IMG/VR virus record: IMGVR_UViG_2648501400_000014
Length of the DNA stretch: 5,888 bases
DNA from: a virus
Taxonomy: Duplodnaviria > Heunggongvirae > Uroviricota > Caudoviricetes
Strand: one strand, 5' to 3'
In this document: in pieces, positions 1 through 5,888 of the stretch
Position numbering within the stretch: position 1 is the stretch's first letter
How the letters are laid out: each line of letters opens with the position of its first letter
Notes under the pieces: generated by a model
Databases searched by the model: none
What the model was told of the DNA's origin: nothing
The model's input: the letters and a program-made list of their open reading frames with translations, nothing else
Program-made: the position numbers and the translations under genes

Positions 1-501
1 CAGCAGCATGGCTGCAGAACAGGCCGTGTCATTGCACAGTGCCCAGACCGGCTTCTGCTGACGGAGGCGGTAAATCATGTCAGCGCAGTCAAACGCGCCG
101 GCGGCCTGCCCGCCCGGACTGTCAATGTCCAGCAGTACGCCCCGCACCTGGCTATCCGCCATTGCCTGCTGAAGACAGGCGACAATGCCGTCATAGCCTG
201 TCATTCCGGAAAATGGCCGCATCCCCCCCAGCCGGTGCACCAGCGTGCCGGTCACCGGCAGTACAGCAATACCGTTCACCACCCGGTAAACACGGGCCGG
301 TCGTTTACCTCCGGCCATGTACTCGTCCGTTTCAGCCAGCATTCCGGGAGCATCAAGCTGTACCTGCTGCTGTGGTACCGAAAGACTTGCTGCCCCCATC
401 TCGCGCCCGAGCGCGCAAAAGAAAACCCGCGCATAGGCGGGCTCCAGAAGCAGCGGTTCATTGAATGCTGCGGCAATAATGTGTGAAAGATTACGTCTCA
501 C
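1..501 (-). CDS. C: Head maturation protease / scaffold gpC-like (S49 ClpP/SppA-type serine protease); N-terminal 167 codons only, gene runs off the left window edge
   Basis: The minus-strand frame with codons on plus triplets 1-3, 4-6 ... 499-501 is open across the whole interval. My hand translation reads VRRNLSHIIAAAFNEPLLLEPAYARVFFCAL...VNGIAVLPVTGTLV...GMTGYDGIV...VLLDIDSPGGQAAGAFDCADMIYRLRQQKPVWALCNDTACSAAMLL. This aligns colinearly with lambda gpC as I recall it (...FNEPLMLEPAYARVFFCAL...NGIAVLPVSGTLV...GMTGYNGII...ILLDMDTPGGMVAGAFDCADII...KPVWALANDMNCSAGQLL). The only in-frame start is GTG at 501-499, with GAGGAG about 10 nt upstream, overlapping the portal stop by 11 nt. The 6-frame track misses it because there is no ATG; track ORF 276..476(-) is in a different frame. 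Gene order after the portal matches lambda. Confidence 0.85.
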   Translation of the reverse strand, partial: MRRNLSHIIAAAFNEPLLLEPAYARVFFCALGREMGAASLSVPQQQVQLDAPGMLAETDEYMAGGKRPARVYRVVNGIAVLPVTGTLVHRLGGMRPFSGMTGYDGIVACLQQAMADSQVRGVLLDIDSPGGQAAGAFDCADMIYRLRQQKPVWALCNDTACSAAMLL

Positions 502-2083
502 GGGGTGTTGTCTCCTCTTCCGGCCTGCGACTCTCCGCTATCTGCTGCTGATACGCCTGCGCTATCCACACCGGACGTGAGAGTCCGGCTTTTTCCCGCT
601 CTGCAGATTCCCTGACCTGCTGGCGGAAAATGTCCTGATAATCCTCGCCCATCAGCGCCAGCTCTTTCTCATACGTGCTCAGTCCGGCCTCAATGCGCAT
701 CACCGATTCCTGAACCTCCTTGAGCCCGTCAATGGCCATTCTTCCGGCACCAATCCACTCTGCCCGTGACCAGGCTGATCGCGCCTGATAAAAATCAAAA
801 CGCGCCCGTGGCGGACGGATAATCCCCCGAAGAAGTGCCTCTTCCAGCCAGCAGGAAAACATCTGCGTGGCCAGCCGGGCCGCAATAAATTTTCGCCGCC
901 CCATAAAATAGCGCCACGACTCATTGGCAGAGGCCCTGGCACTTGAATAACTGACCTTCGAGTAATCACGGGACAACTGTTCGTAGGAAACGCCAAGACC
1001 GGCGGCGATATACCGCAGCAGCGCCTGTTCAAGCGCCGAAAATCCATTGTCTGAATCCTGCGCAGTCTGTAGTTTCAGATCATCCCCGGGGAAAAGGTGC
1101 GGAATTTTGACACCACCCAGCGTCACGTTATTCGTGTCATACCAGGTGGAGAACTTATCCAGAATATTAATAAGCGGATTATCCTTCTGCCCCTGCGGCG
1201 CACCGGCGATATATTCAAAGGCCTTTTCGGTATCAAGGTCACTTTCAATCGTCGCTGCATACATCGCCTTCACTATGGCCGACTGAAGCTGTTTTGCCTG
1301 CAGGGAATCGAGCATCTTCAGCCGTTCCATTACGCTGTAAAACTGATTGGCCCCACGGGTCTGCCCGTCCTCCACCGGCTCGAAAATATGCAGCATGGCC
1401 GGACGCCCGGTGGGAAGTTCACGCGGGATCCGTTCCCATCGTCCACTCCCGGAGAACGGAAAATCATCCTCACAGATATGGTACGCAACGGCACGACCAT
1501 ATCGATCGACCTCCACACCGGCCCGCAGAAAACGGTTCCCCATACCGTGTCCTGGCGTGTCCACCCGTTTCGGACTCACGGCTTTAAAACGCGTACGGAA
1601 TAACTGCGTGGTTTCCGTATCCCAGACCGGCTGCACAAAGATTTCGCCGTTAAACGCATGAACGCCCACACCTTCACGGATAAATTCCGTGAACGTGCGT
1701 TTTCCTTCCACGTCGATCTCGCCAGACATCCCTTCGGCGTATTCCGACCAGGCCGCCTCCACCTCATCGACAAAGCTTTTTGCTGCGGTCTCCCGCATCC
1801 CCAGCCAGCGCCAGTTCGGACGGTAGCTGATAAGAAACATATGCCCGACAATGTGATCCTTATGCAGTGCCACCGCATTGGCCGCTATTCCGTTATTGCG
1901 CACCAGATCATCTGCCCGGGCATTCCCCAGACGCAACGCAGGCAGCAGGGCTGCATCGGCACTCTGCGCCGGTGGCAACCACTCCGCCATTTGCCCGCCA
2001 AATCCTGCACCGCCCCCGTTGTAGCTGAGACTCTCACGAAGCGGAACGCCGTTCACATCAATCAGGACAGGCGTTCGTTTCAT
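491..2083 (-). CDS. B: Portal protein (lambda gpB family)
   Basis: 530-aa ORF from the track. It has long colinear stretches shared with lambda gpB as I recall it, for example GNARADDLVRNNG, FNGEIFVQ, LFRTRFKAVSPKR, FEPVEDGQTRGANQFYSVMERLKMLDSLQ, SAIVKAMYAATIES, LQTAQDSDNGFSALEQALLRYIAAGLGVSYEQLSRDY, ARASANESWRYFMGRRKF and WIGAGRMAIDGLKEVQESVMRIEAGLSTYEKE. Length is close to lambda gpB (about 533 aa). The start ATG overlaps the W stop (ATGA at 2080-2083), and the gene sits between W and C as in lambda. Confidence 0.95.
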   Translation of the reverse strand: MKRTPVLIDVNGVPLRESLSYNGGGAGFGGQMAEWLPPAQSADAALLPALRLGNARADDLVRNNGIAANAVALHKDHIVGHMFLISYRPNWRWLGMRETAAKSFVDEVEAAWSEYAEGMSGEIDVEGKRTFTEFIREGVGVHAFNGEIFVQPVWDTETTQLFRTRFKAVSPKRVDTPGHGMGNRFLRAGVEVDRYGRAVAYHICEDDFPFSGSGRWERIPRELPTGRPAMLHIFEPVEDGQTRGANQFYSVMERLKMLDSLQAKQLQSAIVKAMYAATIESDLDTEKAFEYIAGAPQGQKDNPLINILDKFSTWYDTNNVTLGGVKIPHLFPGDDLKLQTAQDSDNGFSALEQALLRYIAAGLGVSYEQLSRDYSKVSYSSARASANESWRYFMGRRKFIAARLATQMFSCWLEEALLRGIIRPPRARFDFYQARSAWSRAEWIGAGRMAIDGLKEVQESVMRIEAGLSTYEKELALMGEDYQDIFRQQVRESAEREKAGLSRPVWIAQAYQQQIAESRRPEEETTPRET

Positions 2084-2286
2084 AACCTCACTCCCAGCGG
2101 ACGACGGCGACGCCGGGTTGTCCCCAGTACCGACTCCGCATCATTGATCGCCCGGTTAAGCTCATCCAGAGAAGCCGCCGTATATTCAATTCTGCGACCA
2201 TCTTTCTGGACAGACACCACCCGTTTACCGGTTAATAAATCAAGGCGCGCCTGACGCAGCGCCTGCAGTTCAGCGACTGTAACCAT
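2080..2286 (-). CDS. W: Head-tail joining / head completion protein gpW
   Basis: 68-aa ORF, the same length as lambda gpW. The motif LxxLLTGKRVVSVQKDGRRIEYTAASLDEL and the C-terminal RRRRR tract match lambda W as I recall it ([26 protein letters not shown] ... QRRRG). It lies between terminase A and portal B and overlaps the A stop by 17 nt. Confidence 0.9.
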   Translation of the reverse strand: MVTVAELQALRQARLDLLTGKRVVSVQKDGRRIEYTAASLDELNRAINDAESVLGTTRRRRRPLGVRL

Positions 2287-4198
2287 TCACTCCTCCGGAC
2301 AGCTTCGCTGCCAGTTCTTTCAGGGTTGGCCGGGTCGTCTCTTCTTCCCGGGATTTTGCCAGTACAGCCAGATCAAGCTGCCAGCGTTGCACGGACACAC
2401 GTAATGCCGCGTAGGCATACACCAGGCAGTCCAGCGCTTCGTTACGCCGCTTTTTGTTATCCCACAGCAGACGCATCTTTCCTTTTTCCCACTTCTCCAC
2501 AAGCTCTTCCGCCACCAGTTGCTGCGCCTCTGTCTGCGAAAAAATCTCCGGATCATCAGGAAAACGGATGGCATACGACGTGGCTTCATCCGCAGGAGTG
2601 GGATCGGCTTTCATACGGGCATAGAGAATTTCTTTTGCGGTGTCCGTTCCCACTTCACACAGATACACGCCCCGCTGATTGCGGGTTTTTGGCATGGTGA
2701 TCACCGGCTTGCCATAGACAGATGCGCCTTTTACCGGCAGCACCCGGAAAACACCGTGTTTTTTTGATCTCTGATAAACAATTTCACCATCGATCCCCCC
2801 GGTGTCCCAGCAGACACGGGAAATAGTCATTTCGGTGCCATCCGCATGGCGGTATTTTTTGTTGATCGCCGCATCCACACGTAACAGCGTCTCTTCCTCA
2901 TCAGGACGCCCCATAATGATGATTTTATCCACCAGAAAGGCTTCCTCTCCCGGAGCCCATCCCCAGACATACATCTCAAAACGGTTTCGCTGCGAGTCAA
3001 TGCCCGCCGTCAGATAAACCACCCGGGCAGGCACCGCCGCCGTGTAACGCACCACCTTATCCATCAGTACCTGGTGATCGAGTTTTTCGCCCACGGCCTC
3101 TTCCCAGGTCTCGCCCAGCGTGGTGTTCACAAAGGTTTTCAGGCCGTTGGGATCTTTCAGTGCATCCAGCCAGTCATAGACAATCTGTACCCAGGTGGTG
3201 AACGGACTGTACGCCGTCCAGATATGGAACGTGATGGAGCGCGGCGGCGGAATTTCATCACCCCGGGCGCTGAAAAACGTCAGACCGTCACGGGTCCACA
3301 TGCCCGTGTTTTCACAGATCCACCGCCCGTTGTTCTGGTCAAGCTCAGACTGATGGATCACGCAGCCATGATGTTCACAGAGGTAGAAAACGCTTTCGGG
3401 ACTGTCCTTCTCCCATTTAAGCCCAAAAGGCGTGGACTCATCGCCAAATTTCAGATACTGCGCCTCCCCACAGTGCGGGCAGGGCACATAAAAACGCATA
3501 AAATGCGCCGACTCGTTAGCCGCTTTTTCGATCTGGCAGGTGCCTTTGATTTTAGGCGTCGAGCCGCGAATGGATTTTGGCCACACCGACCCCTCAATAC
3601 GCTTATCCCCCAGCAGGGTTGGCGAGCCCTCTTTTTCGACATCCGGCTCGAACGAGGAAAGTTCGTCATAGCAGACCACGTCCACGGATTTTTCACGGTA
3701 GTTTTTGGCGGCAGCGCCGCCCAGGCACCAGAAACCGACGCCCGATGAAAAGCGTTTCAGCGTGAGGGTATTATCACGATGTTTACGCCCAAACCACGGT
3801 GCAAGATCGAGTAAAACCGGCACATCCCTGATCGTGGGTTCCACATGAGATTTCATAAAATCTTCAGCAGCAGAATCCGTGGGCTGGAAAAGAAGGCTGT
3901 TGCGTGATTTATGCTCAATAAAATAAGCCTCCACTCCCAGCAACATCTTTGTATAACCAACACGGGCAGATTTAATCAGATTAACAGTGCGGATCCGGTC
4001 ATTCCCCATGCTGTTCATGATGGCAACCTGAAACGGCAGTGTTTCCCACCGCCCCGGGGTGTAAGATGACTCTTTCGGAAGGTAATAATGTCGATCTGCC
4101 CACTGAACTGTCGTCAGAGGGACAGGAATTTTTAGCGCAAGGAGGCCGGTTGCTATCGCTCCTGCAGAATTAGCCGCCCTCAGTTCGTCTGAAATCAT
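2270..4198 (-). CDS. A: Terminase large subunit (lambda gpA family; ATPase plus endonuclease)
   Basis: The track ORF 2270..4240 (656 aa) matches lambda gpA along its whole length as I recall it: [20 protein letters not shown], Walker-A-like [135 protein letters not shown] place the start at the third in-frame ATG (4198-4196, MISDEL...). It is preceded by AGGTGGA, gives the same N-terminal spacing to the YYLPKE motif as lambda gpA, and gives a 29-nt overlap with Nu1 (lambda has about 26). The upstream ATGs at 4240 and 4216 lack an obvious Shine-Dalgarno. Confidence 0.93.
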
Positions 4199-4718
4199 CA
4201 ATCCACCTGCGCACATTCTCACCGGCTTCAGAAGCCACATCGGATGCTTTCGCGATTTCAGTTTTCACAGCATCAAGATGTGCGGGTGATATATCAGGGT
4301 ATTTACGCTGCAGTGTCTGAGGGACACGGACAAGGATCCCTGATATATTCTGTGCCACTCGCTGAAAGATGTAGGTAAATAACTCCGTCTCGAGGACAAG
4401 GCCTTCCTCACGAGCATTTTTCAGCTTCTGTGCATCGGCCTGTGCCTTCGTCAGTCGGTAACGTTCGTAATCAATGGTGCCGGGCTGAAGGTCTGATTCG
4501 CTGGCAGCCCTCAAATCCTCGATCTCTTTACGGAGTTTTTCGTTTTCAATATCAGATTCCCTCTGCGCATACCACTGAATGGCAGCAGTTGTATCAAAAA
4601 CTGATTCAGTCCCTTTCCCTCCACCAGAAACTAGTGGTAACCCCTGACTCTGCCAGGCGGTGATGGTCCTGACATCAACGCCAAAAATATCGGCCAGTTT
4701 TTTCTTATTGACGTTCAT
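4170..4718 (-). CDS. Nu1: Terminase small subunit (lambda gpNu1 family; N-terminal winged-HTH cosB-binding domain)
   Basis: 182-aa [106 protein letters not shown] is colinear with lambda Nu1 ([103 protein letters not shown], from memory). The C-terminal third is diverged. GGGGGAG lies just upstream of the ATG. It is the first gene downstream of cos, as in lambda. Confidence 0.93.
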
Positions 4719-4737
4719 ACACTCCCCCGGGAACCAG

Positions 4738-4748
4738 AAAGGATCTGA
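4738..4748 (+). repeat. cosB R1-like element (AAAGGATCTGA); candidate terminase small-subunit binding site
   Basis: Exact 11-mer aaaggatctga. Its reverse complement recurs at 4780..4790 and a 10/11 copy lies at 4838..4848. Position (between cosN and the Nu1 start) and alternating orientation parallel lambda R1/R2/R3. In phage orientation it reads TCAGATCCTTTCT, resembling lambda R1 CGTTTCCTTTCT. Confidence 0.6.
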
Positions 4749-4779
4749 AAATGGCGTTTTCTAACAAAAACAGCCTTTG

Positions 4780-4790
4780 TCAGATCCTTT
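4780..4790 (-). repeat. cosB R2-like element (inverted copy of AAAGGATCTGA)
   Basis: tcagatccttt is the exact reverse complement of 4738..4748, giving an 11-bp perfect inverted repeat with a 31-bp spacer. Analogous to the inverted lambda R2/R1 pair. Confidence 0.6.
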
Positions 4791-4813
4791 TATATTTTTA
4801 AAATTCTATTGAT

Positions 4814-4826
4814 AATCAAACAGTTA
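4814..4826 (+). promoter_or_regulatory. IHF-consensus site (I1-like) inside cosB
   Basis: aatcaaacagtta fits WATCAANNNNTTR exactly. It sits in an AT-rich tract between the R3-like and R2-like elements, which is where lambda I1 sits. Confidence 0.5.
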
Positions 4827-4837
4827 AAAAGAAGAAG

Positions 4838-4848
4838 AACGGATCTGA
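4838..4848 (+). repeat. cosB R3-like element (aacGGATCTGA)
   Basis: 10/11 match to the 4738..4748 element in the same orientation. In phage orientation it reads TCAGATCCGTTCTTCTTC, which contains the CCGTTCTTCTTC string that I recall at lambda R3. Confidence 0.55.
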
Positions 4849-4887
4849 TTTTTCCCTAAAAATTTTCATAAATAGCGAAAACCCGCG

Positions 4888-4899
4888 AGGTCGCCGCCC
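4888..4899 (-). other. cosN: 12-nt cohesive-end sequence (GGGCGGCGACCT on the phage top strand), terminase nicking site
   Basis: The plus strand reads aggtcgccgccc, the reverse complement of the lambda cohesive end. A surrounding core of about 44 bp (4859-4905; phage orientation ACGGGGCGGCGACCTCGCGGGTTTTCGCTATTTATGAAAATTTT) is identical to the lambda cos sequence as I recall it. It lies about 170 bp upstream of Nu1. Confidence 0.85.
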
Positions 4900-4935
4900 C
4901 GTAGCCTGCCGGATCGCCGGAAAGGACCCAATAAA

Positions 4936-5137: not shown

Positions 5138-5278
5138 ATGATTAATCAAATCCATATTGCCCTTGAACGTAAGGGATCGGGTAATTTTTCGGCATGGGTT
5201 ATTGAAGCCTGCAGGAGAAGGCTGGCAACAGATGCAAAGCACCTGCGCCCGGCCAGCATGAAAAATAACGAGAAATGA
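5138..5278 (+). CDS. Small hypothetical protein (46 aa), ribbon-helix-helix-like helix-loop-helix remnant; possibly truncated or pseudogenised
   Basis: Hand-translated ATG..TGA ORF not in the supplied track: MINQIHIALERKGSGNFSAWVIEACRRRLATDAKHLRPASMKNNEK. It matches the C-terminal part of a small ORF at the equivalent lambda right-end position (…RNIRFPNQMIEQINIALEQKGSGNFSAWVIEACRRRL…, from memory). No Shine-Dalgarno is evident; the start overlaps the stop of an 11-codon upstream ORF (5106..5141) in an ATGA arrangement. Confidence 0.4.
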   Translation: MINQIHIALERKGSGNFSAWVIEACRRRLATDAKHLRPASMKNNEK

Positions 5279-5410: not shown

Positions 5411-5737
5411 TCAGGGTGCTGAAGGACTAAAGATAAATGTTTTCTTCACGCCTTTACGCGGCTTGTCCTTCTCAAATCGCCATTTTGCCATCGCCTTTAC
5501 AACCTGCTCATCAAACAGATGGTGCGGCTCTGAACGGATAAACTCAATTCGGGTGACAGTACCATCAGCACCAATATCAAACTTCACATCAACCCGTCCC
5601 TTTATATAATTTGCCGCGGCATAGGCCGGATATTGTGGTAATGCCTTAACCAACTGTCGAGGCATATCTGTTTTATGTTGCGTACAGCCCATAACCAAAG
5701 AAGACAACAAAATAATTAACGGAAGATTTCTTTTCAT
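5411..5737 (-). CDS. Predicted lipoprotein consisting only of a TonB C-terminal-like domain (about 108 aa); candidate phage moron
   Basis: Track ORF 5411..5752(-). The start is more likely the internal ATG at 5737, giving MKRNLPLIILLSSLVMGC: a basic n-region, hydrophobic core and a lipobox-like VMGC with Thr at +2. The remainder, LPQYPAYAAANYIKGRVDVKFDIGADGTVTRIEFIRSEPHHLFDEQVVKAMAKWRFEKDKPRKGVKKTFIF, aligns with the E. coli TonB C-terminal domain (…[71 protein letters not shown]…), sharing PQYPA, G.V.VKFD, DG.V, F.E.V..AM..WR.E..KP. There is no TonB-like transmembrane anchor or Pro-rich spacer. Stop is TGA at 5413-5411. Confidence 0.8.
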   Translation of the reverse strand: MKRNLPLIILLSSLVMGCTQHKTDMPRQLVKALPQYPAYAAANYIKGRVDVKFDIGADGTVTRIEFIRSEPHHLFDEQVVKAMAKWRFEKDKPRKGVKKTFIFSPSAP

Positions 5738-5757
5738 TTTTATTCCCGGCATAGATA

Positions 5758-5774: not shown

Positions 5775-5829
5775 AACAATGCAGCCCTGTCGGTCATTAG
5801 ACTGGCCCCCTGAATCTCCAGACAACCAA

Positions 5830-5876
5830 TATCACTTAAATAAGTGATAGTCTTAATACTAGTTTTTAGACTAGTC
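5830..5876. promoter_or_regulatory. Cluster of palindromes (tatcactta-aa-taagtgata; tagtct..agacta; actagt; gactagtc): candidate operator sites
   Basis: Read directly: a 9-bp-arm inverted repeat at 5830-5838/5841-5849; tagtct (5848-5853) paired with agacta (5868-5873); the self-complementary hexamer actagt (5858-5863) and octamer gactagtc (5869-5876). All lie about 100-140 bp upstream of the lipoprotein start. Confidence 0.4.
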
Positions 5877-5888
5877 ATTGGAGAGCAG

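Follow-up and report, generated by a model that had tools for sequence, protein, structure and literature searches.

Only three packaging specificities, those of phages lambda, 21 and N15, are on record, and the Feiss laboratory has pointed out that more diversity might be expected (PMC4669245). Experimentally, lambda and phi80 (also 434) share one specificity and 21 has another (PMC4669245). N15 is the precedent for a third specificity as well as for cross-packaging in an asymmetric form, and lambda DNA is packaged by its terminase although the N15 helix and R3 are very different (PMC4669245). In the reports on lambda (PMC4669245, PMC9026076), the alpha2 helix of the small terminase subunit (TerS, or Nu1) comprises residues 17-24, of which residues 20 and 24 discriminate, and bp 55-63 of R3 are contacted, with bp 56, 58 and 59 being critical. 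The same reports present bp 56 as a documented TerS contact and as a genetic discriminator between lambda and 21: E24 of lambda TerS touches T:A 56 and clashes with the G:C 56 of phage 21. For Gifsy-1, bp 1-70 of cos have been aligned with those of lambda, 21 and N15 (PMC4856287, Fig 1B), and in the literature reached, no binding, footprint or packaging experiments and no specificity work were found on the class that Gifsy-1 represents.

Packaging specificity determines what a terminase will package among co-resident prophages, satellites and cosmids. On it also depend the decoy action of prophage cos sites and the viability of recombinants. Here we compare with these systems the cos region of a 5,888-nt stretch of viral DNA (the window, IMG/VR record IMGVR_UViG_2648501400_000014). 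We regard it as probable that this region is a packaging site in which a Gifsy-1-type cognate pair of TerS and R sites forms a cassette, accompanied by a separable interaction module of the phage 21 type.

The cos site and its neighbours

A lambda-like E. coli prophage is represented in the window by its left end. On the minus strand, cosQ, cosN, R3, an IHF consensus, an inverted R2 and R1 are followed by terS (Nu1), terL, W and the portal gene (Table 1), and terS overlaps terL as in 21. Beyond cos lie genes for a DUF3950 protein and a TonB_C lipoprotein, as well as the end of an IS3-family element, in which the window ends. Base n of the cohesive end corresponds to window coordinate 4900-n. 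The start of terL was picked by homology to 21 gp2 and by RefSeq annotation.

Table 1. Features of the prophage left end, in window coordinates and, where given, in cos coordinates
Feature	Window position	Strand	cos bp	Remarks
portal	491-2083	-		
W	2080-2286	-		
terL (gpA family)	2270-4198	-		642 aa; Pfam GpA_ATPase and GpA_nuclease; N-terminus of phage 21 gp2 type
terS (Nu1 family)	4170-4718	-	start at 182	182 aa; PF07471
Predicted recognition helix, TerS residues 16-25	4673-4644 (codons)	-		class-defining T20, A21 and S24
cos region	about 4735-4929	-		
R1	4750-4735	-	150-165	TTTCAGATCCTTTCTG
R2	4779-4794	+	106-121	GTCAGATCCTTTTATA; inverted relative to R3 and R1
I1	4814-4826	+	74-86	IHF consensus AATCAAACAGTTA; between R3 and R2
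R3	4850-4835	-	50-65	AATCAGATCCGTTCTT; register of lambda R3 and 21 R3
I2-like AT-rich spacer	4851-4882	-	18-49	cosN-to-R3 distance equal to that of lambda
cosN	4899-4888	-		12-nt cohesive end GGGCGGCGACCT, same as in lambda and 21
cosQ-like heptamer	4923-4929	-		GGGTCCT; 30-24 bp upstream of the cohesive end, distance as in lambda

The 30 bp upstream of cosN are identical to the lambda right end at 27 positions. These include the heptamer GGGTCCT, which we take to be cosQ, the packaging termination signal in lambda. The extent of I2 has been given as bp 18-50 (PMC4856287). The R cores begin at bp 53, 109 (inverted) and 153, positions common to lambda, 21 and Gifsy-1, and R3 of 21 is annotated at bp 50-65. 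A search with AGATCCKTTYT, allowing at most one mismatch, found R3, R2 and R1 as the only matches in the 5888 bases. Shuffled sequences had a mean of 0.42 matches and reached three in 0 of 200 shuffles, by which a chance origin of the repeats was ruled out. The one perfect match to WATCAANNNNTTR in the window is I1, at the coordinates of the annotated phage 21 I1. In a set of 66 distinct AGATCC-class cos sequences, conservation reaches at least 95% in the cores of R2 and R1, and the spacers are variable.

The lambda arrangement that a sequence-only reading had ascribed to these sites, with R3 and R1 in one orientation, R2 inverted and an IHF site between R3 and R2, was confirmed in exact register. 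Lambda (also 434 and phi80) has the same order cosQ-cosN-I2-R3-I1-R2-R1 and the same cohesive end. Judged by its cohesive end, cosQ, three R repeats and I1, the window cos can be classed as a lambda-like complex cos. An N15-type simple cosB, which has a single R3 and lacks I1 and any nearby R2 or R1, is excluded, all of these sites being present. The N15/Monarch class shares with the window a lambda-like cohesive end and the same TerS family, but N15 possesses just one R3 (GAGGTTGTTGTT), lacks an IHF site and has a helix that is unrelated, whereas the window cosB is complex and tripartite. Like the window, Gifsy-1 carries an IHF-type site between R3 and R2. In contrast, its cohesive end is GGGCGGCAGCGT, where the window has that of lambda (GGGCGGCGACCT), the R-site spacers differ, and the host of the window is E. 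coli.

Recognition helix and R-site classes

The window TerS matches PF07471 over residues 1-162 (E 1.9e-85), and its PDB matches are 7LXS, 7LWR, 7LW0, 1J9I and 6HN7; by these similarities it is a small terminase subunit of the Nu1 family. Over its full length it is 81-82% identical to phage 21 gp1, the highest value among the named phages compared, only about 75% identical to the TerS of Gifsy-1 and 51-55% identical to lambda Nu1. The DNA-binding domain is 85% identical to that of Gifsy-1 (7LXS), 74% to that of 21 (7LWR) and 60% to that of lambda (7LW0). The protein is composed of a Gifsy-1-like N-terminal winged helix-turn-helix and of a middle part and a TerL-binding end at the C-terminus that are 21-like. 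The three structures are crystal structures of TerS DNA-binding domains, released in March 2022 under one shared title, and no paper behind them was found by PDB code or entry title. In a single-sequence AlphaFold model of the window TerS, helices are predicted at residues 5-12 and 16-24, and the variable residues 16, 20, 21 and 24 would share one face of the second helix. This model (mean pLDDT 70.8, below 50 in the wing) was relied on for helix boundaries only.

Lambda and the window share the winged helix-turn-helix TerS domain and the 3′ half of the R sites, TCC(G/T)TTCT. They differ at helix residues 20, 21 and 24 (Q, N and E in lambda; T, A and S in the window) and in all three R cores, which read GTTTCC(G/T)TT in lambda and AGATCC(G/T)TT in the window. 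In the shared register, R3 is AATCAGATCCGTTCTT in the window, AATCGTGTCGGTACTT in 21, AGGCGTTTCCGTTCTT in lambda and AAGCATGTCAGTTCTT in PhiR5_1. At bp 54-56 the window has AGA, lambda GTT and the 21 type (A/G)TG; bp 59 is C in the window as in lambda. Both changes relative to lambda had been noticed in the sequence-only reading, and the lambda core (CGTTTCC(G/T)TTCT) and lambda helix that it gave proved right. The alignment that it had proposed, with the cos regions and Nu1 proteins of lambda and 21, gave the same register with distinct R cores and a distinct helix. Phage 21 shares with the window the type of the TerS C-terminus and the TerL N-terminus, cosN, the cos architecture and spacing, and S24. 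It differs at helix residues 16, 20 and 21 (P, E and R versus V, T and A) and at bp 55, 56, 59 and 62 of the R cores (CGTGTCGGTA versus CAGATCCGTT).

On these signatures the window falls outside the lambda class (Q20 N21 E/D24 with CGTTTCC), as it has T20 A21 S24 with CAGATCC, and outside the 21 class (E20 R21 S24 with C(A/G)TGTCGG), of which it fits S24 only. It can be assigned to a Gifsy-1-type class, defined by T20 followed by a small residue at 21, by S or N at 24, and by AGATCC(G/T)TT in each of the three R sites. Gifsy-1 itself (NC_010392) has the helix VRT(I/V)TAWQSQ and the R cores AGATCC(G/T)TTC at the same positions. A series of loci 99% identical to Gifsy-1 (L111-L124) has CAGATCCGTTCTT as R3, CAGATCCTTTCTT as R2 and CAGATCCTTTCCT as R1, with the helix VRTVTAWQSQ; the corresponding helices are PRTIERWQSQ in 21 and IRTIDRWQTQ in PhiR5_1.

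The association between helix and R sites was followed in two sets of loci. The first comprises 177 loci collected from GTDB genomes and IMG/VR by TerS similarity (112 distinct combinations of cos and TerS), with the cos numbering anchored on the conserved I2 segment, and the second comprises 120 loci collected by the R3 DNA pattern, 88 of them with terS on the same strand. The class of the helix (residues 20, 21 and 24) and the class of all three R sites are inseparable in about 265 loci, a count inflated by shared ancestry because helix and R sites are no more than about 200 bp apart. The class-specific bases stand at constant positions (bp 53, about 109 inverted, and about 153). QN..E/D helices occur with CGTTTCC (lambda, phi80), ER..S helices with C(A/G)TGTCGG (21), DR..T helices with CATGTCAG (PhiR5_1), and T(A/G/S/T)..S/N helices (also listed as T(A/G/S)..S and ST..N) with AGATCC (the window, Gifsy-1, Providencia and others). 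In the R3-ascertained set, 88 of 88 TerS proteins have T20; their residue 21 is A, G, S or T, and their residue 24 is S or N. The few seeming exceptions to the pairing are all register shifts of 1 bp. As a positive control, the classes recover the specificity shared by lambda, 434 and phi80 and separate that of 21.

Could this pairing be a mere product of linkage and descent, with differences that are neutral or nearly so and with full or asymmetric cross-recognition between the window and the lambda or 21 cosB? We consider this unlikely. It would agree with the weak and poorly specific DNA binding of lambda TerS in vitro (PMC6739421), with the lambda-like 3′ half of the R sites and with the residue 24 shared with 21. 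However, the same class-specific bases are found in all three R sites at every locus, and bp 56, which is altered in the window, is the genetically proven discriminator between lambda and 21. Moreover, markers that are equally close or closer do reassort, whereas helix and R sites never do: variants of the cosN right half and of the TerS wing, as well as of the TerS middle and C-terminus, each occur with more than one R class. The pairing is therefore more than linkage alone.

Two independent recombinants, in both of which helix and R sites were kept together, also speak against the neutral explanation. First, the 21-type locus L082 and the AGATCC-type loci L065 and L068 are identical over bp 1-41 and from codon 26 onward, and their wholesale difference is confined to what lies between, bp ~42 through codon 25. 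Second, L133 joins a cosB and DNA-binding domain of the window type (97-100% identity) to the C-terminal half of PhiR5_1 (100%), with the junction inside a conserved coiled-coil region. We conclude that cosB and the helix that would read it are exchanged as one cassette. The matched change of R sites and helix that the sequence-only reading had suspected is thus supported by the sequence comparisons. Its origin by divergence from lambda is not: lambda is the wrong reference, since TerS is nearest to 21 overall and the DNA-binding domain and cosB are of the Gifsy-1 type.

A similar distinction applies to the TerS-TerL interface. The TerS C-terminus (WIDDFRR.EG.) and the TerL N-terminus (MISD...) do differ from lambda, which has an interaction module of another type, as had been stated. 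They represent the ordinary phage 21-type module, and they covary with each other as a second module that reassorts independently of cosB and helix. Consequently, the idea of a single co-evolving unit comprising both did not hold.

Packaging specificity and the proposed initiation complex

In our proposal, packaging of a lambda-like E. coli prophage would start at this region (cosQ-cosN-I2-R3-I1-R2-R1), next to which lie the terminase genes. By analogy with lambda, a TerS winged helix-turn-helix dimer would bind R3 and the inverted R2 on either side of an IHF-induced bend at I1, and R1 would be an accessory site. TerS placed in this way would anchor TerL for the nicking of cosN at a distance of 47 bp. 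A reading head, made up of T20, A21 and S24 on the outward-facing side of helix 2, would be cognate to the three AGATCC(G/T)TT cores of the Gifsy-1 type, and the short cassette that phages inherit and exchange consists of cosB and terS codons 1 to at least 25. The remaining part of TerS forms, with the TerL N-terminus, the second, separable interaction module of the phage 21 type. From the lambda analogy we infer that the window TerS binds its three R sites. The invariant R17, T18 and Q23 may face the invariant T57 and C58 and the downstream T-rich half, and the bases that are changed in the window R sites include bp 56.

The window is a further case of a known sequence-defined class, placed on a 21-like backbone, and not of a new kind. 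The Gifsy-1-type pair of reader and sites is a discrete class, common in E. coli prophages and swapped as a cassette. It is likely, as far as sequence can tell, that this class represents a packaging specificity separate from that of lambda and that of 21. Since bp 54-56 and residues 20, 21 and 24 differ from lambda and 21, the terminases of these two phages are expected to recognise the window cosB poorly, and vice versa. Partial cross-recognition is conceivable, because S24 is common to 21 and R bp 57-65 are common to lambda. Likewise, the packaging of lambda DNA by N15 terminase implies that sequence classes are not necessarily mutually exclusive specificities. A sequence rule that connects helix residues 20, 21 and 24 with R bp 54-56 and 59 could predict the packaging compatibility of helpers with satellites and of phages with each other.

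A more far-reaching proposal, which we find rather unlikely, is that the AGATCC/T-A-S pair constitutes a fourth, functionally separate packaging specificity, widespread among prophages of Escherichia, Salmonella and Providencia, exploited by PICI-like satellites that retain an orphan cos of its type, and possibly based on Dam-sensitive recognition. The class-specific helix residues (Thr, Ala, Ser) are all small. Every R core contains a GATC whose methylatable adenine falls on cos bp 56, where lambda and 21 are told apart; this suggests a possible Dam sensitivity. If so, the start of packaging might depend on the methylation state, as is reported for the P1 pac site by Sternberg and Coulby (1990). 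GATC is not enriched around cos above the window background (3 per 120 bp are found elsewhere too), so the Dam idea draws only on the position of GATC in the R core. No link between GATC and cosB was found in the literature.

The proposed initiation site might also be out of use. In the closest sequenced copy of the window, a degraded prophage of EPEC E2348/69 (99.5-99.8% identity), head genes are truncated, a truncated S49 protease gene is fused to tail genes, and IS elements are nearby; the window, too, ends in an IS3-family element. With head genes truncated in that copy, this particular cos may have fallen out of use. That it has become an inert remnant in a decaying prophage, unused by any resident terminase, is nevertheless very doubtful: in the window every cos subsite and the reading frames of terS, terL, W and portal are intact, and the same left end is present, at a coverage of at least 80%, in 246 complete E. 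coli genomes. Furthermore, a related phage that belongs to this class could still use an intact cos in trans.

Finally, it is hardly credible that the R2-R1 inverted repeat acts chiefly as a nucleic-acid hairpin, be it a fold of the late transcript or a cruciform, which could for instance control terS translation: the minus strand of 4725-4800 does fold at -27.4 kcal/mol (z = -4.8 versus shuffles) and R2/R1 pairing is kept with two-sided changes across classes (11 of 14 pairs), but inverted copies of one binding site inevitably resemble a covarying stem, R3 changes together with R2 and R1 in every class while lying outside the hairpin, one locus (L057) has neither R2 nor I1, and the same sites in lambda are established TerS binding sites (PMC4669245). 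Because R3 changes in concert, protein binding is the simplest reading of the R2-R1 palindrome. A terminator reading was dropped as well, the search for a terminator-like site having found none.

Orphan cos sites and a natural fusion of R3 with R1

In some two dozen of the loci collected by the R3 pattern, a complete cos of the AGATCC type stands with no terS downstream. In these loci a terS converges on cos from the other side and ends 191 bp from cos bp 1; its product has either PRTIERWQ(M/T)Q, a 21-like helix, or a domain that resembles that of N15. In one island that was read further upstream (L238), the converging terS has its own cos, of the 21 type. The elements are islands of ~13 kb at tRNA-Pro, with genes for an integrase, a primase or RepA-type helicase, SSB, ProQ, PerC and TerS, together with pyocin/immunity cargo. 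Owing to this gene content, which is devoid of capsid genes, they count as PICI-like satellites. The orphan cos keeps all of its sites intact in the islands, away from any cognate terS, and the island module is full-length in 24 complete E. coli genomes. In EcCICFT073, two cos sites are known, and their cosB was unrecognised (PMC6739421).

Locus L057 carries a natural R3/R1 fusion of the AGATCC class, in which exactly 100 bp, including I1 and R2, are deleted. An R3/R1 fusion of this kind has been proposed to have given rise to the simple cosB of N15.

Natural exchange and loss within cosB

Comparison of the collected loci provides examples of cosB being rearranged in nature. Two independent natural recombinants were found. 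In the first (locus L082 compared with L065 and L068, alignment A3), the swapped block consists of cosB and the first 25 terS codons, and the backbones are otherwise identical. In the second (L133 compared with L001 and the window), the block comprises cosB and the first ~55 terS codons. Crossovers fall within I2, a conserved segment, immediately past WQSQG, or in the coiled-coil region, which is likewise conserved. A different kind of change is seen in L057, where R3 and R1 are exactly fused with the loss of 100 bp, including I1 and R2, leaving one R site 81 bp ahead of terS. This fusion corresponds to the unequal crossover proposed by Feiss, by which a Monarch-like cosB would give rise to the simple cosB of N15.

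At the opposite end of the protein, the terS frame in the LT2 Gifsy-1 record (NC_010392, L125) stops at 164 aa (..ASGRAPR), whereas IMG/VR relatives 99% identical to it encode 181 aa ending in ..WTDDFRRAQGE. This difference in the TerL-binding end may reflect a frameshift or a sequencing difference.

Orphan cos sites and variant cohesive ends

PICI-like islands of ~13 kb, inserted at tRNA-Pro, were seen to carry terS. Their gene content also includes integrase, primase or RepA-type helicase, SSB, ProQ, PerC and pyocin with immunity, and no capsid genes are among it. In the island read upstream (L238), terS is preceded by its own 21-type cos. A second, orphan cos of the window/Gifsy-1 type lies directly 3′ of terS in these islands, in convergent orientation, and comprises cosQ, cosN, R3, an I1-like element, R2 and R1. 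The full-length module is present in 24 complete E. coli genomes. The orphan site may be the counterpart of a second, unexplained cos in EcCICFT073.

In a subset of the cos sites from phages and islands (L063, L065, L068, L082, L105, L213, L221 and L238), the cosN position (cos bp 1-12) is occupied by 12-mers of the form GGT......ACG: GGTCTGGGGACG, GGTCATAGCACG, GGTACGGATACG and GGTAGCCATACG. These depart from lambda in the left half too; the left half of cosN is said to be under selection. Such 12-mers are either cohesive ends of a different kind or cosN sites that no longer function. Judged by sequence, PhiR5_1 (L001, PV340545) and L126-L132 form an additional reader/site class, with helix IRTIDRWQTQ and R3 CATGTCAGTTCTT; the repeats at R2 and R1 show less regularity.

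Dam sites and a hairpin in the R-site region

Within every R core of the window/Gifsy-1 class lies a Dam site. Its adenine falls at cos bp 56, the base pair by which lambda and 21 are told apart (PMC4669245, PMC9026076). GATC is kept at all three R sites in 64 of the 66 distinct cos sequences of this class. The frequency of GATC around cos shows no statistical excess over the background of the window, and no publication connecting GATC with cosB was found. The inverted repeat made up of R2 and R1 folds, together with the intervening spacer, into a strong hairpin (-27.4 kcal/mol, z = -4.8). Lambda, 21, Gifsy-1 and the islands all retain hairpin potential in this interval despite their differing sequences.

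Coordinates of features in the window and in related loci
Feature	Sequence	Position	Strand
terS/orphan cos of an island	L238	3560-4640
Island L329	E. coli C5, NZ_CP010122	2183900-2196250
Further islands	L224, L237, L244, L284, L314, L221, L230, L285
R3-R1 fusion	L057	1120-1220
R2-R1 hairpin	window	4725-4800	-
GATC in R1	window	4742
GATC in R2	window	4783
GATC in R3	window	4842
DUF3950 protein, 46 aa	window	5138-5278	+
Lipoprotein with TonB C-terminal domain, 113 aa	window	5411-5752	-
Multicopy repeat	window	5798-5888

The window beyond cos

At the end of the window lies a multicopy repeat. It occurs in 4814 of 5426 E. coli genomes, with up to 41 copies per genome, and is missing at the corresponding place in E2348/69. 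In strain 33-6 it stands immediately upstream of an IS3-family transposase with a programmed frameshift, and we take it to be the left end of IS2. The lipoprotein and DUF3950 genes, located between the lysis region and cos, occupy the position held in lambda by bor, and are probably moron cargo.
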